Positions 33,150 to 64,000 are shown, counted from the stretch's first letter. The stretch: 64,000 nt of DNA from Gemmatimonadota bacterium (GCA_039584255.1 JBDGYE010000007.1:5815-69814), one strand, 5' to 3'. Numbers and translations are program-made. Notes: generated from the sequence alone by a model not told the origin.

Positions 33150-34901
33150 CTATCCGCTCGGCCAGCGCCTCCGCTTCATCGCCTTCCGCTTGGCCTCGTT
33201 CTCGCGCCACGGCTTCCGGGCAAAGTAACTGCGGGTCTCCTCCACGACCTTCGGGGAGAGAAGCACCAGGGCGATCAGGTTCGGAACGATGACGACGGCC
33301 AGGAAGATGTCCCCCAGGTTCCAGATCACCGTCAGCGGGAGAACCGCGCCCACGAAGTGCATGGTGACGAACGCCATCTTGTAGGGCAGCACCGCCGGCG
33401 CCCCGAACAAGTAGTTGGCGCACCGGTCCCCGTAGTAGCTCCACGAGATGGCGGTCGAGATGGCGAACAGCAGCACGGCGAGGACGACGATCAGGCCTCC
33501 CCAGTCGCCCAGCGGTGAGAGCCCGAGCCGGAACCCCTGTTGGGTTAGCGGGGCTCCGCTCTCGATCGCCATTCCGTACAGCGACGTGTAGCTCTGACCG
33601 TCGTCGCCGACTGCGGTGACATCGGCGGGACGAATCGTGCCGGAGAACGGACGCGTCATATCTGCATCCGTGAAGAGCTCCTCGACGGCCACGTCGTGCC
33701 AGGCCACGAGCGGCGCCTCCACGGTCCGGGGGTAGCGTCCGTCCTCGATCACCAGCTCCTCCGGAGCGTCGGCGTCGGCGCGGCGACCTGCCGCATCCAC
33801 GGTGACGTAGCTGAGATCACCGCCCGTGAGCGAGATTTCGGTCGGGATTCGCGCGTTCCACACGCCGGTAATGATGATCACGAGACCTGTCATCGTGCAG
33901 ATGACGATCGTATCGATGAAGGGCTCGAGGAGCGCGACCACGCCCTCCGACACCGGCTCGTCCGTCTTGGCTGCCGCGTGCGCGATCGGAGCCGATCCCT
34001 GACCCGCCTCGTTCGAGAAAAGGCCGCGCCGTACACCCCACATCATAGTCACCAGGAAGGCTCCCACTCCGGTTCCCGCCACGCCGGCGGTCGGGTTGAG
34101 CGCCTCACGGACTATCAGTCGGAAGGCCGGAATCACATCACCCATGTTGAGGAAGATGATGATCAGGGCGCCGAGCACGTACATCGCGGCCATCGCCGGC
34201 GCCAGCACGGCCGTCACTCTGCCAATTCGCGTGATCCCGCCCAGGATTACCGCTGCCACGATGCCCGAGGTCGCCAGTCCCGTGACCCATGCCGGCAGCC
34301 CGAAGGTGGTCCGCATGGTGTCGGCCACCGTATTCGCCTGGATCGCGTTCCCGGTGAGAAACGCGGTGACGCCCAGGAGGAGGGCGAAGAGCACGGCCAT
34401 CCACTTCCAGTGCTGACCCAAGCCCTTTTCGATGTAGTACATGGGCCCGCCGGAGACCGTCCCCTCCCAGGCGTGGCCGTGGGTGGCCTCGATGTTGCGA
34501 TACTTCTGGGCCAGAGTGACCTCGGTGTACTTGGTGGCCATCCCCAGCGCGGCCGTGACCCACATCCAGAACAGCGCGCCGGGCCCGCCCCAGTGGATAG
34601 CGATGGCGACGCCGGCGATGTTACCGATTCCCACCGTAGCCGAGAGGGCCGTGGTCAGGGCCTGAAAATGGGATACGTCTCCGGGCTCTTCCGGATCGTC
34701 GTACGCCCCCGAGGTCACCTTGAAGCCGTGACCCAGGCGACGGAGCTGGATGAAACCCAGCCGGAGCGTCAGGAAGACGCCGGTACCCAGCAGGAGCAGG
34801 ACCATGTAGGGAACTGTCTCGCCCCCCACCGTGATGCCCAGCTCGACGACGTACCGGTTACCGAAGTCAGACAGCCGCTGGAAGAAGTCCATCCGCCCCA
34901 C
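33150..34901 (-). CDS. Alanine/glycine:cation symporter (AGCS family)
   Basis: ALSATVGIGNIAGVAIAIHWGGPGALFWMWVTAALGMATKY and other AGCS patterns. About 100-aa hydrophilic insertion (ARIPTEISL...APLTQQGF). Start at 34901 or 34892. Confidence 0.85.
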   Translation of the reverse strand: MGRMDFFQRLSDFGNRYVVELGITVGGETVPYMVLLLLGTGVFLTLRLGFIQLRRLGHGFKVTSGAYDDPEEPGDVSHFQALTTALSATVGIGNIAGVAIAIHWGGPGALFWMWVTAALGMATKYTEVTLAQKYRNIEATHGHAWEGTVSGGPMYYIEKGLGQHWKWMAVLFALLLGVTAFLTGNAIQANTVADTMRTTFGLPAWVTGLATSGIVAAVILGGITRIGRVTAVLAPAMAAMYVLGALIIIFLNMGDVIPAFRLIVREALNPTAGVAGTGVGAFLVTMMWGVRRGLFSNEAGQGSAPIAHAAAKTDEPVSEGVVALLEPFIDTIVICTMTGLVIIITGVWNARIPTEISLTGGDLSYVTVDAAGRRADADAPEELVIEDGRYPRTVEAPLVAWHDVAVEELFTDADMTRPFSGTIRPADVTAVGDDGQSYTSLYGMAIESGAPLTQQGFRLGLSPLGDWGGLIVVLAVLLFAISTAISWSYYGDRCANYLFGAPAVLPYKMAFVTMHFVGAVLPLTVIWNLGDIFLAVVIVPNLIALVLLSPKVVEETRSYFARKPWRENEAKRKAMKRRRWPSG

Positions 34902-54913: not shown

Positions 54914-55246
54914 CAGCCCTTCCTCCGCTTTACGTCTTCCCTGCGCCTTCGGGACCCGGACCAGTGGCGCCTGCTGAACGTGGTAACTCCAACACCGCGG
55001 CACAAGTTAGGCTGAGCTGCAATCGGGATGGGACAGCGCGCAGAAAGCGCAACTGCTCTCGCCCGACAGTGGCCGCTCACTCCTCCTCTCAAGCCCGCGA
55101 AAACCGGAAACGTACGTAACTCAGGAAAGCCTCGGCTGAAGGCTAGGGTTGTCGGGGGAGCCTCCAGGACAGTATAGAACCGTTGCCCGGGTAGGATGAA
55201 GTGGGCGGGCTTATCTGCCGGAGAGAGCTCCAGCGCGGTTGGGCTT

Positions 55247-55337
55247 GTCACCCCTTTGTCACCGACCGTTCTCAACCTGTTGAGACGACCACGTCCCAGA
55301 TGCACGAAAGCCCCGTCGCAAGAATCTACGGGAGCTT
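55247..55337. repeat. att-flank repeat, copy 1 (GGTGACA doublet + inverted repeat + hairpin)
   Basis: TGTCACCCCTTTGTCACC...TCTCAACCTGTTGAGA...CCCAGATGCACGAAAGCCCC. About 80% identical to 61021-61106. Confidence 0.7.
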
Positions 55338-55581
55338 CCAAGGGGAAGTCGGTCTGCGTGTTCTCGGAGAGGTCCCTCGGGTTGCCCCTGATCGTCCAGC
55401 TGTGCCGCTGGTTAGGTGGGTGTTTGTTCTGCTGGTGCTTCCGACCCTGGGCCAGGCGGACCAGGAAGGGCGGGACGCGGCGCTGCCGATTCACACAGCG
55501 GGAGCTTTGACTGCGGCTCCGGAACAGGTAACCTGGAGGCACCGGATTGCAGCGTGCAACGCACCGGCGCAGCAACGGCCC

Positions 55582-56076
55582 TTACTGCCCCTTACGCCTT
55601 TCCTTCCCAGATCGGCGTTCGCCTCTTCTGCGATCTACTCCTTTCCGCCTATCTGGAATGTCGATAGGTACCTGCTTCTTGCGCCGGTCCGTGCCCGAAC
55701 GGCGATCTCGCCCTCTGCGTCGGTCGCTACCCGACCGGGCTTGTACCTCAACACGCGCGTACGTCGTTTCGAACGCACCAATCCCCTGATAGCCGGGCCT
55801 AAGACCCGAGGCAACCTGATTCGTGATAATCAGGCCCTCCATCCTGGACACTTCAAACAGGTTCCAGCCGGGCGGAGTGGTTGGCGTGGAGTAGCCGCCT
55901 ATCTGGTAAGCAATCAGGAGCTCCTTTCCGGAAGCCGCAGCCCCATACGCATAGGGCTCTACCTGCCGGATTCCACCTTCGTAATGAAATCGAACGATAC
56001 GTCTTTCCTGGATTGCCTTGCAGACGCGTGAACGGAACTCGTCGCGACTCATCGTTGCACTCCCTTCGTACAGCAA
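55582..56076 (-). CDS. WYL-like small beta-barrel protein with C-terminal DRR-repeat Arg-rich tail
   Basis: RIVRFHYEGGIRQVEPYAYGAAASGKELLIAYQIGGYS....GWNLFEVSRMEGL pattern. Tail SDRRRGRDRRSGTDRR...PDRRKGVDRRRGERRSGKERR. Start at 56076 or 56052. Confidence 0.55.
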   Translation of the reverse strand: MLYEGSATMSRDEFRSRVCKAIQERRIVRFHYEGGIRQVEPYAYGAAASGKELLIAYQIGGYSTPTTPPGWNLFEVSRMEGLIITNQVASGLRPGYQGIGAFETTYARVEVQARSGSDRRRGRDRRSGTDRRKKQVPIDIPDRRKGVDRRRGERRSGKERRKGQ

Positions 56077-56221
56077 ACGTATCCGAGCCGGTCGCGCGGG
56101 CCATCTCTCAGGTGTGCTGCAAATGCGTGTGTAGCTTGCACTTCTGCGCCTCAGAAACGGGGAGAGGGTCCCTGCTTCTCTGAGTATGAATCATAACCAC
56201 ATCGATCGCTGAGCCAAATAG

Positions 56222-56422
56222 CTAATCGCGCACGCACGGGCAAAGGTCGCAACGTGATGAGCTCTCTGCGTGTTTACAACGACCAATCCCGCGGGGAGAA
56301 AGAGGGCCCTCGCGGTGTGTCACCATGCCGTTCATCATGGTGAACGGGACCTCCGTCTCGGAGATCTCGTGGGAGTCGACCTCGAAGAGGTTGCGCCCCA
56401 ACACCACGAGGTCGTACGGCAC
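56222..56422 (-). pseudogene. 3'-terminal remnant of an amidohydrolase gene
   Basis: YDLVVLGRNLFEVDSHEISETEVPFTMMNGMVTH parallels the C-terminus of the amidohydrolase at 16772..18409 (DLAVLSQDIFEVPLGELPTTRSILTFVSGEVVH). No upstream catalytic domain. Confidence 0.5.
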
Positions 56423-56493
56423 AGTTCAATCTGTGACGAGAGGCTCTCCGGTCCCAAGTCCCTCACAACTCCGGAGCTGGAGACTCGCAGGTG

Positions 56494-57024
56494 CTACGGT
56501 GCGTTCGTTCTCAGATCCCAGCTTCCGACGACCTCTCCCTGCTTCCTGCCATCGGCGCCGTAGGCAGTGTACGTCCACTCGGCGCGGCCAAAGGCCAGGG
56601 AGAGTGCCTCCATCGGGTGTTGGCTGCCGTGGGCTGCCGAGACCGAGTTAGCGCTCACGAGCACATCTGTGAGCTCAAGGCGGTAGAACTCCCGGCCTTC
56701 TGAGACAACACGGAGAGTCGCCTGCGCGAATCGCTTGCCCGTGGCGCAAGCCTGCAGCAGCACGGGGCTTGCCTTATCGACAGGCTTGAGGATGCTCAGG
56801 TCCGAGAAATCTGCCCTGCCCGCAGTCCTCGCACTGAGATCGGCCGCGTTGGCCGCTCCCCACTCGAAGGATTCGACGACAATGCACCCCCTGCAGTCCC
56901 TTTCCATGGACTCCCCTTCGACGCCCTCGATCTGGAGGAATACCTCAGCCTGCGCCTGGGCCGCATCGGGCAGCGTCAGGAGACCCATCGCGACAGAAAG
57001 CGCCAGTACGAGCATCCTTCTCAT
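56494..57024 (-). CDS. Hcp-family (type VI secretion tube protein-like) protein carrying a Sec signal peptide
   Basis: VFLQIEGVEGES...VESFEWGAAN...FSDLSILKPVDKASPVLLQACATGKRF..ATLRV...LELTDVLVSA...EALSLAFGRAEWTY matches Hcp1 throughout. N-terminus MRRMLVLALSVAMGLLTLPDAAQA. AAGGAGAGG RBS before the ATG at 57024. Confidence 0.8.
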   Translation of the reverse strand: MRRMLVLALSVAMGLLTLPDAAQAQAEVFLQIEGVEGESMERDCRGCIVVESFEWGAANAADLSARTAGRADFSDLSILKPVDKASPVLLQACATGKRFAQATLRVVSEGREFYRLELTDVLVSANSVSAAHGSQHPMEALSLAFGRAEWTYTAYGADGRKQGEVVGSWDLRTNAP

Positions 57025-57533
57025 AGGACCTCTCCTTTCCAAAGAGGCACAGTGCTGCCGGACTGCCGACGCGCGCCTGCTGCTGTGTCCTCCTATCTGG
57101 CCCGTTTCGCGATCACCGGGAGGTAAGCACAGCGTCACGCAGTCGCAGACAGCCCAGCAAGGGGACGGCGAGCCTTCCCAGATTCAGGTGTGAGGGGGAG
57201 CACGACCACCTTGAAGCTACCGACCCGCTCGCCGGCTTGCTAGCAAGCAAAGGCGCCCAGCGTGCAAAGGGGCGGCCCTCGATCGAACCGCCCTTTATCG
57301 GTGTCAACCAGCCTTGGCCACTGCTCTGGAAGCTGATCGGTGAGGGGAGAAATGTGAACATGGGCTTCCATCCACCGCCCGTCGCGTCTTTTGACCGAGG
57401 CGACTACGCCGCCATCCAGGCCCGTAAGCTCTGACTCCATCGCCGCGACCACTTGACTTCGCCGTGACAGACCTCTGCCGGTCAGGAACATGGAGAGTGG
57501 TGCGATTCGAACGCGACGAGACGGCGACGGTCC

Positions 57534-58866
57534 TCAAATACCCGTATGCCGGTGAGTGAACGCCAGGCCGAATCCCTCCAGCTCCGCTAGCACGGGCTCG
57601 TAGATCTCGCGCAAGGTGGGCATCAGGACGCCCGTGGTCTCGATCACTCCCTCGAGGATGAGTCGTGCGGCGATCGCCGCCGGCAGCGAGACGGCACGGG
57701 ACATCGCCGAGTCACCGTGGGGAACTCCCTCCACCACCATGCTGGTCGACCGTGTCTCGCGGCGCGCCGGGCGGTTCTCAGCGCCGGCACCAGGGAACTC
57801 AGCGCTGATCTCGTCGTGCACGATGATCATGTCCCGTTCACCGGGTGCGTAGGACATGCGTCGCAACATGAGGCAACAGGCCGAGCCACTCGAAGCGCTG
57901 TATCACATCGGCGATCTCCTCCACACCGAGGAACTCGGCCGTTTCCTCCCGGACCCGTGCCGTGGATACGCTTCCCTCGCCCTCCCGGGCCGCCTCTACT
58001 CCCCTGGCCCGAGAGATGAGCCCAGCCGTGTAGTCCGCGTAGGTCCGCCCCGTCCACTCGATCGCCTCGGAGTCATCGAGCGCTCCCAGCGAGATGAGGG
58101 CCCGCATCGTGTTGCACCAGCCGGTGAAGCGAAGTAAACCGCGATAGAGGGAGACGCTGTCGTCGAGGTCGTACCACGGCAGGTAGCGGGTGGAGTCACG
58201 GTTCGGATACGTCTCGAACACGCCGATCCCCTCTATTTCGACGATCCAGTGATGCTCGAACAGACGGTCGCCCGGAACCTCTACCCGGCGGCCCTGCCGT
58301 AGGTACGCAGCGGGGGCCTGCGCGGCCAGCATCACCCCCTTCGGGCTCCATGAGAACTTGTAGCCGAGGGGGTTTCGGTTGTGCTCGAAGGCGGGAAGGC
58401 CAGCTCCGTATGAAGTCACGCTTAAGGCGCGACCGCCCTCGTCCCGGATCGCATCGAGGGTCTGCATCACGCCCATGTGGTCGAGACCCGGATCCTCGCC
58501 GATCTCGTTCAGGATCGGTATGCCAGCCGCCTTCGCCTCTTCGTCGAGGGCCGCCATGGCCGGGCTGATGAACGAGGTGGTGATCATCGGTGTGCGGTGC
58601 CGCAGGCACGCCCGGGCCACCGGGATGTGCATCGTCGGTGGGATCATGCTCACGACGAGGTCCGCGCCTTCGGCCAACTCGTCGAGCCGGTCCTCCTCGT
58701 CGGTCGTCCACGCGAGCGTCTCGCCGGCGGCGCGGCCTGCCAGAATGCGCTCCGCCTTCGAGACGGTCCGGGTGGCCATCACGACCCGGTAACCGCAGCG
58801 GTCGAGGAAGTAGTCGACCATCGGCTTGGTGACCATCCCCGCGCCGAGAACGACGACCGTGCTCAT
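57534..58866 (-). pseudogene. Saccharopine dehydrogenase-like gene split by a frameshift
   Basis: ORF A (58866 down to the stop at 57838) carries VVVLGAGMVTKP and NEIGEDPGLDHM. ORF B (57869..57534) carries the family C-terminus SYAPGERDMIIVHDE...SAMSRAVSLPAAIAARLIL. The two overlap by 32 nt in different frames. Confidence 0.65.
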
Positions 58867-58929
58867 GTAGGCTCCTTCGTTGAACGCTGCTCCCTTCGGT
58901 AGCCTACATGAAGCTGCCACGTATAGCCA

Positions 58930-58985
58930 CCGCTTATCAGGCTCGAAACGAGCGCTGGTAGGCGCTGTCACCGCCTTTGTCACCG
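58930..58985. repeat. Second att-flank repeat type, degenerate copy
   Basis: GCTCGAAACGAGCGCTGGTAGGCGCTGTCACCGCCTTTGTCACC, homologous to 61154-61207. Preceded by a decayed trace of the T arm (CCACCG...CTTA). Confidence 0.6.
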
Positions 58986-59222
58986 TGCGGCCAGGCGCTT
59001 CTCTGGTCGAGCCTCCATTGGCACGACACAATGCCGTGCAGGATTGGGCGGGTGACCTACATTGATCGAGCCGGCCTGGGGCACCGCTCCGGCAAGCCAG
59101 TGCCTTAGCAGCTGGACCGGGCAAAGATTACTCATGAGAATCCGCGGAAGGAGTGCGGCAAGCGCGGCGACCGCCGGGCCGAAAGCGGTCGGCAAGTCAA
59201 GGGATTGGCCCTCCGATATCCG

Positions 59223-60503
59223 CTACCTGCTCGACGGTATTGGCAAGTCCATGAGCTTGCGCGCCACTTCAAGCGGGCCATCCCGCGTGGCTTGCCAGCC
59301 CTTCAACTGCGCCATCGCCGTCTTGTACGCCGGATCTCCCAGCACCGTGTCGATCGCGTCCCGCAGGCGCCCGCGCGCCAGGCTGCGCAGCGAGCGGCAC
59401 AGCCCCGCCCCATGCCGCTCGACCAGACGCAGGTTGAAGTTCTGCTCCGGCTGAAGGGGGAAGCCGATCACGGGGACGCCCGCCGCGATGGCGGTCTGCA
59501 CGCTTCCTTGCCCGCCGTGGATGATGGCCAGGTCGCAGCGGGGCATCACGAGATGCGAGGGCAGGAAGTCCCGCACGAGGATGTTGGCTCCGGCGCCCGG
59601 GTCCGCTCGGTGCACGGTGGTCACGATGACGGCCCGGACGTCCAGGCCCTCCAGCGCCTCGCGCACCCGCCGCACGTACTCCGGCCGGCTCGATGCCAGG
59701 GCGACGTAGACCTTGGGTCGATCGGTCTCTAGGAACTCAGCCGCGTCGTCGGGGAACTCGCCGAACAGCTCGGCGAACATCGCACCGGCATAGGCGAGGC
59801 GTGCGTTGGGACGGAACCGGTGCGTGTCCGTGGGACGCCATGCCTCGAGCTCATCCCCGGGGATCCCCAGGATCTCCGGCACGTCGGTGACCAGGGTGAG
59901 ATCCCCCATGAGGAGGTCGAACGTGCTGCGGATCATCTCCCTGATCCCCAGCCGGCGCGCCACGGCGTTGAAGGTTCTGGTCTGGAACCGGGCCCGGGTG
60001 AAGACCCGCCCCGCGACCCAATCCACCCACGGCCCGGGGAGAAGGGCCGTGACGGGATTGTCGAATGCCTCGCGAGACGCAAACCCCGCGGCCTCCAGCG
60101 CCGGAGGCACGAACGACCCCAGGTGCGTCACCACCAACGGGATGCGGGCGCCCCGCGCCGACAGCGCTGCCGACAGCGTGAACCCGATGACCACGGCCCG
60201 TGCACCGTGCCGCTCGAAGAACGCCATCTCCGACCGCACATGCGCCTGGAGCGCGGCCGGCTCGTAGAGCGGCTGCCACGGTCGGTACGTCAGCACCTCC
60301 AGCTGGCGCCGGGCCTCGTCGGCGGTGAGCCGCGGCTCGATCAGCTCGTAGGGCACGCCCTCCTGCCGCAGCACGAACTCGTAGGGCCCGCCGTGGGTAG
60401 CCAGCACCGAGTCCGCGCCCAGCTCCCGCAGCTTTCGGTACACGGCCACCATGCGGGAGGTCTCTGAGAGGAAAGCGCAGTTGGGCAGGCAGACGACGGT
60501 CAT
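59223..60503 (-). CDS. GT1-family (MGT/UDP-glycosyltransferase-like) glycosyltransferase
   Basis: C-terminal donor-binding pattern LAIIHGGQGSVQTAIAAGVPVIGFPLQPEQNFN. 426 aa. Confidence 0.8.
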   Translation of the reverse strand: MTVVCLPNCAFLSETSRMVAVYRKLRELGADSVLATHGGPYEFVLRQEGVPYELIEPRLTADEARRQLEVLTYRPWQPLYEPAALQAHVRSEMAFFERHGARAVVIGFTLSAALSARGARIPLVVTHLGSFVPPALEAAGFASREAFDNPVTALLPGPWVDWVAGRVFTRARFQTRTFNAVARRLGIREMIRSTFDLLMGDLTLVTDVPEILGIPGDELEAWRPTDTHRFRPNARLAYAGAMFAELFGEFPDDAAEFLETDRPKVYVALASSRPEYVRRVREALEGLDVRAVIVTTVHRADPGAGANILVRDFLPSHLVMPRCDLAIIHGGQGSVQTAIAAGVPVIGFPLQPEQNFNLRLVERHGAGLCRSLRSLARGRLRDAIDTVLGDPAYKTAMAQLKGWQATRDGPLEVARKLMDLPIPSSR

Positions 60504-60640
60504 GGGCTACGGTACACCTCCCCACCCTTCATCACGAACACCACGTGGCGGAGTGCCGAGGTGTGCTCCAGGGGATTGCCATCGACTGCGATTATGTCCG
60601 CCAGCAGACCAGCGCAGTTCACCTCGGTCAGGCCACCGGG
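60500..60640 (-). pseudogene. 3'-terminal remnant of an amidohydrolase gene, stop overlapping the GT start (ATGA)
   Basis: ...LLADIIAVDGNPLEHTSALRHVVFVMKGGEVYRSP is a typical amidohydrolase C-terminus. The upstream sequence in frame is not protein-like. Confidence 0.5.
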
Positions 60641-60940
60641 ATCGCCGTCAGGGACAGCGTTCTGACGAGTGCGGCTCACTACGTCGAGGATGCGCCCCAC
60701 CTCCCCGTTCTCCTCGATATCTTCGAACACTACACCGGTCAGCCCGATCCCCAACCGGTCTCGCTCGGGGGCGGAACCCATGCGCGGCTCGTTCCGAACG
60801 GTGTCAACTTCGGCCCGTCGATGCCCGGAGACGTTTACACCGGCCACAGTGAGCACGAGTTCATGACGCGCGAGACGTTCCTCCTCACGCTGGAGATGTA
60901 TACCGCCATGCTCGTGGAACTGGCCACATCGAAACGCTGA
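60640..60940 (+). pseudogene. 3'-terminal remnant of an M20 dipeptidase (PepV/Sapep-like) gene
   Basis: ...LLDIFEHYTGQPDPQPVSLGGGTHARLVPNGVNFGPSMPGDVYTGHSEHEFMTRETFLLTLEMYTAMLVELA matches only the C-terminal roughly 90 aa of that family. Confidence 0.5.
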
Positions 60941-61020
60941 GATTCGAGGTGTTTGGGCCAGGCCTGCCGGACTCTCGAAGTCCGCGGGCGCGGTGGGAGC
61001 AGACCAAGGGTGCTCCCTCT

Positions 61021-61106
61021 TGTCACCGCCTTTGTCACCGGCCTGCCTCAATCTGTTGAGACTGCCCACCCCCAGATGCACGAAAGCCCCATCGTGACGG
61101 GGCTTT
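61021..61106. repeat. att-flank repeat, copy 2 (adjacent to the tRNA-Lys half)
   Basis: TGTCACCGCCTTTGTCACCGGCCTGCCTCAATCTGTTGAGACTGCCCACCCCCAGATGCACGAAAGCCCC... Confidence 0.7.
61083..61106 (-). terminator. Hairpin plus U tract directly after the tRNA-like remnant
   Basis: Minus strand AAAGCCCC-GTCACGAT-GGGGCTTTCG. Confidence 0.45.
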
Positions 61107-61111
61107 GCGCG

Positions 61112-61153
61112 GAGGCCCGGGCGGATTTGAACCACCGACCTCACGCTTAAGAG
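61112..61153 (-). other. tRNA-Lys(CUU)-like 3' half (anticodon loop to discriminator); probable integrase att-core remnant
   Basis: Minus strand CTCTTAA|GCGTG|AGGTC|GGTGG|TTCAAAT|CCGCC|CGGGCCT|C reads as anticodon loop, 3' anticodon stem, variable loop, T arm and 3' acceptor. No complementary 5' acceptor strand, D arm or 5' anticodon stem upstream. Confidence 0.6.
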
Positions 61154-61207
61154 CTCGAAACGAGCGCTGGTTGAGCGCTGATATGCTCTGTCACCGCCTC
61201 TGTCACC
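61154..61207. repeat. Second att-flank repeat type, copy adjacent to the tRNA-Lys half
   Basis: GCTCGAAACGAGCGCTGGTTGAGCGCTGATATGCTCTGTCACCGCCTCTGTCACC. Confidence 0.6.
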
Positions 61208-61308
61208 CCGCCCTCCGCCGGGCGAGCAAAGCGAAAGCGCCCGGCGTGCCGTCGAGGCACGCAGTGTCGAGACATCGAGCACGCGCTGCGTGCGAACAAC
61301 GGGGCGCC
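61208..61308. repeat. Post-ORF hairpin repeat family, long (about 100 nt) copy
   Basis: GCCGGGCG-AGCAAAGCGAAAG-CGCCCGGC, followed by GTGCC-GTCGA-GGCAC and GCACGC-GCT-GCGTGC hairpins. About 95% identical to 61998-62098. Confidence 0.75.
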
Positions 61309-61331: not shown

Positions 61332-61880
61332 TCAGTGCCACATGGCGTTGATGGTCAGCAGCAGCAAGCTGGCGCTGTTATCGCTGATTCCCTGATAGAC
61401 GAAGTCGACGGTAGGCGTCAGAAAGAAATTGCTGGCGACCTGAATATCGTAGCCCAAGGCGGCCCCGAACCCAAACCCGCCATCCGGCTCCACGTCGCCC
61501 GGGACAAACTGTAGATCAGCCGTGCTGCCTGCGAATCCTATTCCCCCTTTTAGGAACAGTCCCCCTCGCGGGCTGGGGTAGTACATGACTATCAGGTGAG
61601 CGTTTCCTCTGGCGAGGTCAGTACCTACCTCGGTCGTCGTCCAGCCAATGGCTTCCCCACCGACAAGGACCTGCTGGCTCGGAGTACCACCCATACGGAG
61701 CTGCGACGCGAATCCCGTTTGCGTGTCTCCGAATACATCGTCATCTAGACTCCAGCCGCCACCGAACCCAAAGCTGATCCAGAATCCTTCGTGGTTCGCG
61801 GTCCTCTGGCCCAGCGCGGAGGACGGTAGCAGCAAGGCGAAGGAAAGGGCGAGGACAAGGCCAGTCATTCGACGCAGCAT
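61332..61880 (-). CDS. Small outer-membrane beta-barrel protein (OmpW/OprG-like porin-family size, 182 aa)
   Basis: Signal peptide MLRRMTGLVLALSFALLLPSSALG. Alternating-strand patterns. Aromatic C-terminus ...LLLLTINAMWH. GGGAGGTG RBS before the ATG at 61880. Confidence 0.7.
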   Translation of the reverse strand: MLRRMTGLVLALSFALLLPSSALGQRTANHEGFWISFGFGGGWSLDDDVFGDTQTGFASQLRMGGTPSQQVLVGGEAIGWTTTEVGTDLARGNAHLIVMYYPSPRGGLFLKGGIGFAGSTADLQFVPGDVEPDGGFGFGAALGYDIQVASNFFLTPTVDFVYQGISDNSASLLLLTINAMWH

Positions 61881-61997
61881 GATGCACCTCCCAATCTGCG
61901 TAACAGGCCGTGCCAGGAGGGGGATCGGCAAAGACTGCTTGGCCGTGGTTCGACCTGGCAAATACGCATGCGGGGCTAGGTGCTGTGAGTCTACGAT

Positions 61998-62098
61998 CCC
62001 GCCCGCCGCCCCGCGAGCAAGCGAAAGCGCCCGGCGTGCCGTCGAGGCACGCAGCGTCGAGACATTGAGCACGCGCTGCGTGCGAACAACCGGGCGCC
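61998..62098. repeat. Post-ORF hairpin repeat family, long copy
   Basis: Direct repeat of 61208-61308, 790 bp away. The two copies bracket the OMP gene. Confidence 0.75.
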
Positions 62099-62130
62099 GG
62101 AACGTGCGATAGAGCCTGCAGATGGCGCTC

Positions 62131-62517
62131 TCACTCGAGGTCTGCGCCGCGGTCGGCCAGGAGTTCACGGAGCAGGGACCTGTGACATCGAGACTCTCCC
62201 GCGCAGTAGCAGCCCACGGAGAAGTGGGCACCGTGCGATAGGACCGCAAGGAGATCAAGAAGCCGACTCTTGTCCGGAACGGCCATCTCGGCTCGGTACT
62301 TCTTCGCGAAGACGCCCCAGTCCTCGTCGCTGCTCACCGCTTGACCCAGCTTCATGAGCTCCGGGCTCGGTGCCAAGTTGGGGAGCCAGACGTCGTAGTA
62401 GTCTCGCGACGCGTACTCCGTCTTCGGGACACCGCGGGGCGGACGTCTCACGGTGCCAACTCGCACTCCCTCTTCACGATTCCTCGGAGTCCCCAGGCGC
62501 ACTATTCGGATTGTCAT
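62131..62517 (-). CDS. DUF488-family protein
   Basis: IRIVRLGTPR...VWLPNLAPS..L...........W..F...Y..E......LLDLL......FSVGCYCAGESRCHRSLL pattern. Start is the ATG at 62517. Confidence 0.7.
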   Translation of the reverse strand: MTIRIVRLGTPRNREEGVRVGTVRRPPRGVPKTEYASRDYYDVWLPNLAPSPELMKLGQAVSSDEDWGVFAKKYRAEMAVPDKSRLLDLLAVLSHGAHFSVGCYCAGESRCHRSLLRELLADRGADLE

Positions 62518-62612
62518 CTGTGCTTGGATCCTGTCTTTGTCTAGCCACATGCTGGCGGGGCGCGATCGCAACGCCGACCGCGATCCACAATGGCCTCTCC
62601 AGCCGCTTCATG

Positions 62613-63005
62613 CTAGGTCGCGGCAGATGGCTCCGAACCCTTTGGCGCCAGAATCAGCAGCACGATCCCGACAATCGCCAGGGCCGGCACATCACCGAAT
62701 AGGTGTCCCCGCTCGGCGGTATCGCGGAGCGCTTGTACACCCATGATTCCGGCATGCACGAGGCTGGACCAGGCCGTGAACAAGATCAGGCTCCGGTGCT
62801 TGTGAGGCTCGCGCGCGGCCAGTATGAGGAAGACGCCCAACGTAGCGTACACACCAATGAACATCTGCTCATACTCGGGCTGATTCGGCTGCCACTGCCA
62901 CCCCGCCGGCCAGATGCGCATGAACAGCCACACTCCGAAGATGAAGACCAGCCCGACAGCGATGAGCACCGGGCGCAGTGCCTGCGAGTGTTGTCCTCCA
63001 TTCAT
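62613..63005 (-). CDS. Hypothetical four-TM membrane protein (130 aa)
   Basis: Four hydrophobic segments. No family confidently recognised. Confidence 0.5.
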   Translation of the reverse strand: MNGGQHSQALRPVLIAVGLVFIFGVWLFMRIWPAGWQWQPNQPEYEQMFIGVYATLGVFLILAAREPHKHRSLILFTAWSSLVHAGIMGVQALRDTAERGHLFGDVPALAIVGIVLLILAPKGSEPSAAT

Positions 63006-63193
63006 TAGTGATCCCCCAGATGGCTCTTTGCCTCACCACCACTCAACGCGTCTATGCTGCACAGGAGGGCACGCTCCACGTGGAGGCCCCAGCCTGGCAG
63101 CTCGGAATGCAGTGTCCGAGAGAATGAACCTCAGGGAGAATCCGCTTCGTCTGCAATCACTATACGCGCTCTCCTACGAATGCCGGTTACGGC

Positions 63194-63236
63194 TCCCCGC
63201 CGCCGGCGAGCAAGCAAGAGCGCCCGGCGTGACTCA
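63194..63236. repeat. Post-ORF hairpin repeat family copy
   Basis: CCCCGCCGCCGGCGAGCAAGCAAGAGCGCCCGGCGTGAC, abutting the stop of the ICMT-like gene. Confidence 0.6.
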
Positions 63237-63794
63237 GAACAGGAAAGGAATGAACATCTTCGTGCGCCGCATGTACGCGCGGTAGTCGGGGCCGAAATAC
63301 CGGAGATTCTCAGTCTCCTCGACCCTGGCCGTCGCCACCAGGAAGGCCGTCGCGCCCAGCGCCAGGCAAATCCCGGCCCAGGATGGATTCTTAAAGAACA
63401 CACCCCATCCGAGAAGGAGCAGCGAGCTGTAGAGGGGATGTCTGATGTACCTGAAGGCACCCGTCGTCACCAGCCGGGTTGTCTTCTCGATCCCGAGCAG
63501 GTGTCCTTCCGCACGTCCATCCGCCTCCGGTTTGCCCTGAGTGCGCAGCAGATGTACCCCAGGAACCGCCGGGACCAGCGAGGCCACAAGCAAGAACCAC
63601 GAGACGAGCTGACGAAGGGAGAACGGGTCGTGGAACCACTGCTCGAAGTTCTCGAAGTTGAGCAGGAAGAGGACGAGGATGCATTCCCACGCGAAGAACC
63701 GGTAGAAGCCATGAGAACGCGCGTCCTTCAGGGAGGCCCTGGAGACGTACGCGAATCCGGCGGACAGGGCGATGAAGACTACGAGTCTGGGCAT
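63234..63794 (-). CDS. Isoprenylcysteine carboxyl methyltransferase (ICMT/PEMT-like) family membrane protein
   Basis: LVTTGAFRYIRHPLYSSLLLLGWG...EETENLRYFGPDYRAYMRRTKMFIPF is the C-terminal family signature. Confidence 0.75.
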   Translation of the reverse strand: MPRLVVFIALSAGFAYVSRASLKDARSHGFYRFFAWECILVLFLLNFENFEQWFHDPFSLRQLVSWFLLVASLVPAVPGVHLLRTQGKPEADGRAEGHLLGIEKTTRLVTTGAFRYIRHPLYSSLLLLGWGVFFKNPSWAGICLALGATAFLVATARVEETENLRYFGPDYRAYMRRTKMFIPFLF

Positions 63795-63840
63795 GGTCTC
63801 ACTCCGACGCCGTCGTGAGACAGAGCCTCCCTCCTAGCTT

Positions 63841-63890
63841 CCCGCCCGCCGCCGTGCGAGCAAGCGAAAGCGCCCGGCGTGAACCAGGCG
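63841..63890. repeat. Post-ORF hairpin repeat family copy
   Basis: CCCGCCCGCCGCCGTGCGAGCAAGCGAAAGCGCCCGGCGTGAACCAGGCG. Confidence 0.65.
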
Positions 63891-64000
63891 CTGGGTCGCT
63901 TAGGTGTAACCCGCCCCGTTTAGCATCGCAGTGCACTCAGATCCTCTGAGAGCGACAGGAGATCGTGGCAGTTTACCCTTTCCACAACCGCATACCACTC

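Follow-up and report, generated by a model that had tools for sequence, protein, structure and literature searches.

Genomic islands reportedly reside in tRNA genes, with the crossover in the anticodon loop (Reiter 1989; Williams 2002; Islander database, PMC4383910). Elements can also outlive their integrases: in streptococci, elements decayed to integrase-less cis-mobilizable elements (CIMEs) and then accreted (Pavlovic 2004; Bellanger 2011; reviewed in PMC5704250). In the tycheposon-built islands of Prochlorococcus, later integrations displace the older elements inward, and the islands are strewn with partial tRNAs and degenerate remnants (Hackl et al., bioRxiv 10.1101/2020.12.28.424599). 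Here, we describe a repeated, tRNA-containing site in a 64,000-nucleotide stretch of a Gemmatimonadota genome (the window). The best copy in the window lies at 61207-61021 on the minus strand and contains the 3' half of a tRNA gene between two arms, and degenerate copies lie at 58.9 and 55.3 kb. We think it likely that these are attachment-site scars of serial anticodon-loop integration at tRNA-Ile, and that the locus is now a decaying stack of integrase-less islets, accreted much as CIMEs are.

Like the tRNA-gene islands catalogued by Islander, the locus has a displaced 3' tRNA fragment that marks the end of an element and a block of identity from the anticodon loop to the 3' end; element DNA would regenerate the intact gene, and presence varies among relatives. 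The locus differs in that the conserved block continues for about 95 nt beyond the tRNA and in that the intact gene is on another contig of a fragmented assembly. Islander also requires one integrase per island (PMC4383910), and there are none in the units here. The module (as we call the repeated site) has most of the attributes of a tRNA-gene island att site and lacks this one, so we place the units with CIMEs. As in CIMEs, attL- and attR-type sites are found without integration genes, and stacking into a resident att site gives attP-like hybrid joints. Known CIMEs are decayed integrative and conjugative or integrative and mobilizable elements of Firmicutes, usually one or two per site with a helper alongside, whereas here there are at least five consecutive small units, in another phylum, with no helper visible. 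Tycheposons are similar in that tRNA-adjacent islands with partial tRNAs have grown by successive integration, but they carry their own tyrosine recombinase and a replication module, and we see no such genes here. The structure is thus of a known kind, and is unusual only in that the stacked islands are all without the enzyme that would insert them.

The window is C103:5815-69814 of the source assembly (G000; 3.1 Mb in 140 contigs, 66% GC), and contig C103 runs 5.8 kb and 3.8 kb past the window's ends. Coordinates are window positions unless given as contig:position. The module reads on the minus strand, and we name its parts in the sense of the tRNA, which is that of decreasing window coordinates: the P arm (left), the core (O), and the P' arm (right). 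We compared the locus to 60 relatives. Of these, G001 is from the same genus as G000, G027 is a congener of G013, and G023 and G034 are congeners of G008.

An earlier note on this stretch had assigned the 42-nt tRNA-like piece at 61153-61112 to tRNA-Lys(CUU). We found that 35 of 36 nt are identical to the 3' half (C46:9983-10018) of the only tRNA-Ile(GAT) gene in the genome (C46:9946-10020), and that all 36 are identical to a second fragment on contig C56 (1651-1686). The same 36 nt match tRNA-Ile genes in Azospirillum replicons. We rejected the tRNA-Lys(CUU) assignment, as the genome's tRNA-Lys(CTT) (C80:21709-21782) is unlike the piece all along the T arm and the acceptor strand. The earlier note had itself named such a mismatch as grounds for dropping the assignment; the result changes the name of the tRNA and not the mechanism. 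At the loop, sister copies read CCTGATAAGCG and the window copy reads C-TCTTAAGCG, that is, the anticodon loop changed from CTGATAA to C-TCTTAA. Given this comparison, the apparent "CUU anticodon" is a decayed GAU loop (CUGAUAA). Judged by its sequence, 61153-61112 is a displaced part of tRNA-Ile(GAT), namely its 3' half, which begins with the anticodon loop and ends with the 3' strand of the acceptor stem. ARAGORN found no tRNAs in the window, so no tRNA 5' half exists there, as the note had said. A permuted or partial tmRNA was also rejected: ARAGORN found none in the window and the 3' end of the genome's tmRNA is different. A search of the window against Rfam gave no family at the gathering threshold, nor at E-values of up to 5.

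On the minus strand, 61207-61021 reads GGTGACAGAGGCGGTGACA, a 35-nt leader, the tRNA-like piece, a GC hairpin and UUU, a TCTCAAC..TTGAG inverted repeat, and GGTGACAAAGGCGGTGACA; this order of elements had been described correctly. The parts are:

61189-61207, minus strand: P-arm doublet GGTGACA-GAGGC-GGTGACA, proposed arm-type integrase sites (from the sequence and a doublet scan)
61154-61188, minus strand: P-arm leader adjoining the core; its two CAGCGCT repeats, at 11-nt spacing, may be sites for accessory or directionality factors (from sequence comparison)
61112-61153, minus strand: core and 3' half of tRNA-Ile(GAT), with the loop mutated (from the match to C46 and C56)
61083-61106, minus strand: terminator-like hairpin AAAGCCCCGTC-ACGA-TGGGGCTTT of the tRNA-Ile 3' flank, the start of the P' arm (from folding)
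61045-61062, minus strand: palindrome GTCTCAAC-AG-ATTGAGGC, a degenerate form of GTCTCAAT-CG-ATTGAGAC (from alignment of the copies)
61021-61039, minus strand: P'-arm doublet GGTGACA-AAGGC-GGTGACA (from the doublet scan)

This 187-nt stretch is an attP-like hybrid joint, P-core-P', between two tandem elements. Its similarity to the intact tRNA-Ile locus (86% over 132 nt) spans, after the tRNA, the terminator-like hairpin, CGTGCATCT, a G-rich spacer, the palindrome GTCTCAAT-CG-ATTGAGAC, and the doublet. The hairpin has a 10-bp stem (-14.4 kcal/mol) followed by UUU; its T run is short, which is why a simple terminator scan missed it. The window has three exact copies of the doublet GGTGACAnnGGCGGTGACA (58966-84, 61021-39, and 61189-207), all of them on the minus strand. 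With up to 3 mismatches there are 5 matches, versus 0.21 expected from shuffled sequences, and we attribute the near-doublets at 34353 and 47625 (3 mismatches each) to chance, as their contexts are unrelated.

Across 12 full copies, the mean pairwise identity was 0.98 for each GGTGACA heptamer, 0.96 for the tRNA part, 0.94 for the terminator hairpin, 0.89 for the palindrome, 0.66 for the post-tRNA spacer, and 0.62 for the G-rich spacer. GGTGACA doublets are found on both the P and P' arms, apart from the core, in 5 genomes; besides the window, a P-arm-type doublet precedes the core in C56, G001:C24, G013:C34, and G008:C113. A GGTGACA-type left arm consists of a hairpin repeat (hpA, described below), then the doublet, then CAGCGCT repeats at 11-nt spacing, and the order of hpA and doublet is the same in C56 and G001:C24. 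There are two CAGCGCT repeats in the short form of the arm (the window and C56) and 5-6 in the long form (G001:C24, G013:C34, and G008:C113). Measured between the two doublets, units of the short form span 187 nt and those of the long form about 240 nt.

The attP site of phage lambda has arm-type sites P1/P2 and P'1-3 and Xis sites X1/X2. The module is similar in that it is a site of about 190-240 bp with a central core, has one short direct repeat on both arms, and has a second type of direct repeat beside the core on the P arm. This is a likeness of layout only, with no cognate integrase or Xis identified. The earlier note's reading of the tRNA half as the core of an att site, and of the heptamer doublets as resembling arm-type sites, is supported.

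The edges of the copies also point to site-specific recombination. We aligned 17 distinct copies, from 5 metagenome-assembled genomes (MAGs) and from metagenome contigs, on the T arm. In every one of them, similarity begins on the left at one nucleotide, directly before C(C)TGATAAGCG, where the anticodon loop has its 5' edge. To the left of this nucleotide there is either the 5' half of the tRNA (C46, G001:C6, and loci L072 and L077) or one of at least five unrelated arms. These arms include the GGTGACA type, three others with direct-repeat doublets of their own (TACATGTTTG, AATTGTCGG, and CGGCAAGATGCCGT), and a fifth type in G013:C2. There is a second class of breakpoint, at C103:70960 and in G001:C6 near 101.1 kb, where only CACCCGGGCCCA (the T/acceptor junction) is kept. 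Of 3919 islands in Islander, 2083 have anticodon-centred crossover sites and 1836 have crossover sites at the T stem or junction (PMC4383910). Both classes of breakpoint match recognised crossover subsites of tRNA-targeting tyrosine integrases. We considered transposon ends and rejected them: the doublets of the two sides are direct, not inverted. The same layout exists with an enzyme in G027 and G029, where tRNA-Ile is followed by a terminator, a hairpin, a doublet of ACTACTGTCGATT (x2), and then a convergent tyrosine integrase of 394 amino acids (PF00589, 8e-19). In G013:C34, a remnant of this type of integrase adjoins a tRNA-Ile half.

The module has a restricted distribution, and it stays with tRNA-Ile. 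In G000, all 7 exact doublets are on C103, C46, or C56 and lie beside a tRNA-Ile core or 3' flank, so the doublets are not dispersed independently of the tRNA. Exact doublets were likewise found only beside tRNA-Ile cores in G001 (9), G013 (4), and G008 (3), and a reversed-pattern control gave 0. G001 has four more doublets with one mismatch, of which three are on the same array contigs, and G000 has a degenerate copy of the module at C81:20789-20851. The copies form co-oriented arrays with a spacing of 0.9-11 kb. Among the 60 relatives, long matches were limited to G001, G013, G008, and G007. A few other relatives (G014 most of all) had weak, diverged matches, and most of the remaining matching genomes matched in the tRNA part only. 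The module is patchy even within genera: it is in G013 and not G027, and in G008 and not G023 or G034. Among species-representative genomes, four Gemmatimonadota MAGs were the only ones in which a scan found the module, and a scan of metagenomes found six more contigs. Because the architecture recurs in five MAGs and six independent metagenome contigs, we exclude an assembly artefact as its source.

The order of events, and the pairing of proteins with sites, that we infer would be as follows. A tyrosine integrase would exchange strands within the 7-nt anticodon loop (CTGATAA). The incoming element would bring its own tRNA 3' half with the terminator, palindrome, and GGTGACA doublet (P'), so that the tRNA gene is rebuilt. 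The older 3' half would be displaced downstream, behind the element's other arm (P: hpA hairpin, GGTGACA doublet, and CAGCGCT repeats). In the usual notation, P-O-P' would integrate into B-O-B' to give B-O-P' ... P-O-B', and a second integration into the rebuilt tRNA would leave an internal P-O-P' joint. Further rounds would extend the series: tRNA, P', cargo, P-core-P', cargo, P-core, and onward. The GGTGACA doublets, which have a 12-bp spacing on either arm, are putative arm-type integrase sites, and the CAGCGCT repeats and the palindrome are putative binding sites for accessory factors. Integrase genes may have been lost via recombination among the many direct repeats.

The array can be followed from contig C56 into C103, as a single-copy UPF0182 gene that is split between these contigs places C56 upstream of C103. 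In tRNA sense, it contains:

C56: hpA-long, then P-O-P' with an intact core
C56:1353-1 and C103:73662-73207: UPF0182 gene, split over the two contigs
C103:72926-72863: hpA and a degenerate P arm
next: gene for a TPR protein of 578 amino acids
C103:70960-70859: decayed tRNA 3' end and P' arm, the left end of unit E1, beyond the window
next: unit E1, 3.8 kb, with genes punctuated by hpA repeats
61332-63895, minus strand: distal part of E1, with a PEMT/ICMT-like methyltransferase, DUF6632, DUF488, and a secreted protein of 182 amino acids (from open reading frames, a domain search, and an hpA scan)
61208-61308, minus strand: hpA-long hairpin repeat directly upstream of the P arm (family D1; a second copy at 61998-62098, 96% over 80 nt)
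61207-61021, minus strand: P-O*-P' joint, where O* is the mutated core
58986-61020, minus strand: unit E2, 2.0 kb, with two 3' gene remnants and a GT1 glycosyltransferase gene (59223-60503)
58931-58985, minus strand: P arm and core only (doublet, CAGCGCT leader, CCTGATAAGCG), then unrelated DNA
55323-58930, minus strand: segment of 3.6 kb where the tRNA 3' half belongs, between P-O and P', with a frameshifted saccharopine dehydrogenase (57534-58866), a weak hpA copy (57218-57265), an Hcp-like gene (56494-57138), and a WYL-like open reading frame of 164 amino acids (55582-56076)
55246-55322, minus strand: truncated P' arm, with the 3' half of the hairpin, the palindrome GTCTCAACAGGTTGAGA, and the doublet minus one base (GGTGACAAAGGGGTGACA)
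next, to about 52 kb: NuoB-like gene and more hpA-punctuated genes

The copies that flank this part of the window are real: 55253-55318 is 82% identical to 61029-61094, 58941-58959 is identical to 61153-61171, and 58950-58984 is 89% identical to 61173-61207. The truncated P' arm (C103:61060-61132) is 85% identical to positions 114-187 of the unit. A trace of the T arm had been reported at 58985-58930, and we find none. The similarity stops right after CCTGATAAGC, and the DNA beyond is the upstream flank of the dehydrogenase gene, which is also in G001. Homology to G001:C44, which has a different upstream arm, begins at exactly the nucleotide of this breakpoint at 58.9 kb. The 6-kb stretch at 55.2-61.2 kb, which the earlier note described as bracketed by degenerate copies, is not one island; it is the 2.0-kb unit E2 plus the 3.6-kb segment. 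E2 has the P' arm at its left end (in tRNA sense) and the P arm and core at its right end, so that attL- and attR-type sites are kept at both ends, and its only contents are the GT1 gene and the two gene remnants. Decay grows along the array away from C56: that contig has an intact core, the copy at 61.1 kb has a mutated one, and the copy at 55.3 kb is truncated. The layout is that of a pile of tandem integrations, as the earlier note's reading of the copies as scars of repeated integration or tandem islands implies. Overall, the mechanism that the note proposed was largely right; the tRNA was misidentified, there is no remnant of a T arm at 58.9 kb, and a picture of one single island does not hold.

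As for the cargo, Pfam searches gave matches to the T6SS_HCP domain, to saccharopine dehydrogenase over two frames, and to a GT1 glycosyltransferase, in agreement with the earlier gene calls; there were no Pfam matches for the WYL-like reading frame or the two 3' gene remnants, which had also been called. The interval is not conserved in the same-genus relative G001: 44-64 kb of the window has no synteny with it and only scattered single-gene matches, in which single cargo genes at 87-91% identity are on different G001 contigs. Homologues of the GT1 protein elsewhere have 75-78% identity and lie among other, ordinary neighbours without modules, so we rejected the GT1 unit as a mobile unit in those genomes. 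The gene for the UPF0182 membrane protein (910 amino acids) lies inside such arrays in four genomes (G000 and loci L016, L022, and L071). We also considered UPF0182 as a native neighbour of tRNA-Ile, which would make the module native flank, and rejected this: three complete relatives lack the gene, and in two others it is a long way from tRNA-Ile. Because it is patchy, we consider it to be cargo and not native flank.

We did not find the enzyme that would have acted at these sites. Searches with PF00589 and PF00239 gave no match on C103, C46, C56, C81, or the relatives' array contigs; the earlier note had seen no integrase, excisionase, or transposase in the window, and indeed PF00589 has no match anywhere on C103. 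Roughly 20 units in 5 MAGs include none with an integrase. There were no serine recombinases in seven genomes, and a custom hidden Markov model for integrases, run over all array loci, found only the known remnants on G013:C34 and C13. Elsewhere, G000 encodes a non-Xer tyrosine recombinase, an integrase of 421 amino acids at C80:21951-23213. A possible integrase remnant beside the P' arm on C46 was rejected, as low-stringency tblastn gave noise only. So was a novel recombinase among the array genes: clustering 206 open reading frames from the arrays gave cargo only (Ser/Thr kinase/TPR, UPF0182, DinB, and others). The window copies are old and partly decayed, and the units have lost, or never had, an integrase, and therefore correspond to CIME-like islets.

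Integrons deserve mention here, as they too have co-oriented small units between repeated structured sites and a trans-acting enzyme is conceivable. They differ in that the sites here are tRNA-derived with arms, not attC hairpins with R and L boxes. By eye, there are no attC-type R''/R' boxes (RYYYAAC / GTTRRRY) in the module or in the hpA repeat. In a search for IntI (TIGR02249), the best score in G000 was 89 bits versus a cut-off of 265 bits, and nothing in G000 or G001 was above the cut-off. G008 does encode an integron integrase (C32:897-1922, locus L087; TIGR02249, 444 bits), next to groEL, and that 18-kb contig has no cassette array and no repeated site. We rejected the integron reading, as IntI is found only in G008, away from the arrays, and there are no attC-like boxes.

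Several observations weigh against serial integration at tRNA-Ile as we propose it. There is no integrase on the contigs with GGTGACA modules (C103, C46, C56, and C81 of G000; C6, C24, and C53 of G001; C113 and C63 of G008; L065; and the metagenome contigs), with the sole exception of G013:C34, which has the remnant of the other integrase type, so the enzyme is hypothetical. G008 has modules with intact cores, yet its only recombinases are the integron integrase and two probable Xer-type recombinases. No free form carrying this attP was found in scans of phage, plasmid, or viral-contig records: phage records had no match to the site, plasmid records matched in the 36-nt tRNA-Ile part only, and a scan of IMG/VR for the doublet gave only chance matches that code for GDMGGDM-type peptides. 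The intact tRNA-Ile gene is on C46, separate from C103, and the contigs end at repeats. In G001, 79 kb separate one of the arrays from the tRNA-Ile gene, and the two have opposite orientations. Finally, one P' is common to joints with unrelated P arms, which requires either many tandem residents of the GGTGACA type or capture of P'.

Could the arrays instead be an active platform that works like an integron? Units comprising P', cargo, hpA, P, and core would circularise to form P-core-P', and a tyrosine recombinase acting in trans would capture, stack, and exchange them at tRNA-Ile or at resident sites. We consider this unlikely. The small size of the units (0.9-11 kb) and their uniform lack of an integrase fit this idea, as does the sister array in G014, which is on another tRNA-like 3' end and also has no integrase; against that, no candidate enzyme was identified. 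The position after the core at which the dehydrogenase segment begins is identical to the nucleotide in two genomes whose upstream arms differ, but no unit was seen with the same arms in two contexts, and the GT1 homologues elsewhere are without modules. Both arm doublets are exact even where the copies have otherwise decayed, and cores are intact in the joints on C56, G001:C24, G008:C113, and G013:C34; yet the overlap region of the window joint is mutated and two neighbouring joints are truncated, which resembles decay and not maintenance. Integrase-bearing tandems of at least three are rare (4 of the 3919 Islander islands; PMC4383910), but deletion of the integrases through recombination between direct repeats would look the same. 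A more specific form of the idea is that some Gemmatimonadota run a tRNA-anchored platform, in which integrase-less units with a complete attP-like site of 190-240 bp, and with genes punctuated by hpA, are captured, stacked, and exchanged by a recombinase encoded elsewhere; this seems quite doubtful to us.

Two other explanations do without integration. The module might be the native 3' flank of tRNA-Ile (a terminator, an operator-like palindrome, and a transcription-factor doublet that regulates the neighbours), copied by segmental duplication or homologous recombination. The module does follow the intact tRNA-Ile gene in G000, in G001, and on two metagenome contigs, and it is generally known that direct repeats one helical turn apart also suit response-regulator-type sites. 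But the P arm, which is no part of the tRNA flank, has the doublet too, ahead of the core; the copies begin exactly at the anticodon loop and not at random endpoints of duplication; the genes downstream of the copies are mutually unrelated; and there is no module downstream of tRNA-Ile in G027, G023, G034, or most of the family. These points make a native flank improbable. We give hardly any credence to the other explanation, a small RNA gene derived from the tRNA, in which the half tRNA and terminator are expressed as a functional RNA. Although the T arm, the 3' strand of the acceptor, and a strong hairpin with UUU are all present, the acceptor strand has no 5' partner, the anticodon loop varies between copies without compensation, there is no promoter-like site upstream, and no Rfam family was found at any threshold tried. 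Also, conservation reaches past the terminator to DNA-type motifs (the palindrome and the direct repeats).

Besides the module, G000 contains about 37 copies of hpA, which is GCGCCCGG-TTCACG-CCGGGCGC-TTTCGCTT followed by GCTCGCACGGCGGCGGGCGGGA. Between 51984 and 63895 of the window, hpA copies lie on the minus strand at 63895-63835, 63232-63199, 62044-61992, 61255-61201, 57265-57218, 52614-52576, and 52042-51984, and there are others on contigs C47, C139, C13, C99, C80, C81, and C56. The copies are co-oriented and at the 3' ends of genes, and they form dense arrays of 0.5-3-kb units downstream of tRNA genes. For example, at least 15 copies come after an integrase and tRNA-Arg(CCT) in G001:C42. 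hpA directly flanks both arms of the GGTGACA-type att module and is not attC-like. It may be only a shared terminator, or it may be a second recombination site. We also noticed inserts of about 45-50 nt in hairpin loops: in the loop of hpA-long (61229-61308 and 62019-62098), in the T loop of a tRNA-Ile remnant of G001 (G001:C24, L016, near 3700), and, similarly, in the variable region of tRNA-like remnants in G014:C17 (L020/L021). The hpA-long and G014 inserts have GTCTCG..CTGCG.GCCTCGACGGCA in common. A tiny insertion that targets loops may be one possibility.

The sister array in G014 (G014:C17:30000-62000, L020/L021) has six co-oriented units in 26 kb, on a contig with no integrase. Each of them comprises a TTGAAGTGT doublet, the 3' end of a different tRNA-like gene, the GGGCTTTCGTGCATCTGGGG hairpin region that the module also has, and finally 2-3 repeats of CTGTCAC. 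As this is GTGACAG in reverse complement, the heptamer core is the same and the orientation is opposite. Elsewhere in G000, further scars with tRNA 3' fragments are at C47:5538-5581, C13:14520-16136, C69:575-619 and 1481-1519, C22:95-137, and C36:42176-42205. These are scars of tRNA-Lys(TTT), in the largest hpA array and with integrase remnants on both sides of the intact gene; of tRNA-Ser(CGA), with two fragments and a duplicated gene; and of tRNA-Arg(CCT) and tRNA-Leu(TAA). Several tRNA genes of G000 are integration hot spots. In G001, a short open reading frame at L013:1524-1829 (G001:C6 near 84.6 kb), just upstream of a TACATGTTTG-type arm, resembles OrfA of the IS3 family by eye (...LRRENRQLRIEREILSKV). 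The final 114 nt of contigs C46 (10312-10425) and C81 (23656-23769) of G000 are identical and in the same orientation. This shared end is an assembly fork, where the tRNA-Ile locus and a second module-bearing locus enter the same unassembled sequence, and it points to a repeat or to strain heterogeneity.

For annotation, the distal third of the window is a mosaic accessory array and not core genome, and the orphan Hcp, NuoB-like, dehydrogenase, and glycosyltransferase genes there should be read as cargo. The module also gives an almost unstudied phylum a family of att sites that is well defined at the level of motifs: a core, two arm doublets, and accessory repeats. That many islets have well-kept arms and no integrase means either that trans-acting recombinases maintain cassette arrays or that the islets are undergoing ordinary decay. 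Decay would be an ordinary finding. Maintenance in trans, if true, would be a new route of gene capture, and a tRNA-anchored platform would be the functional counterpart of integrons, with tRNA att sites as its building blocks.

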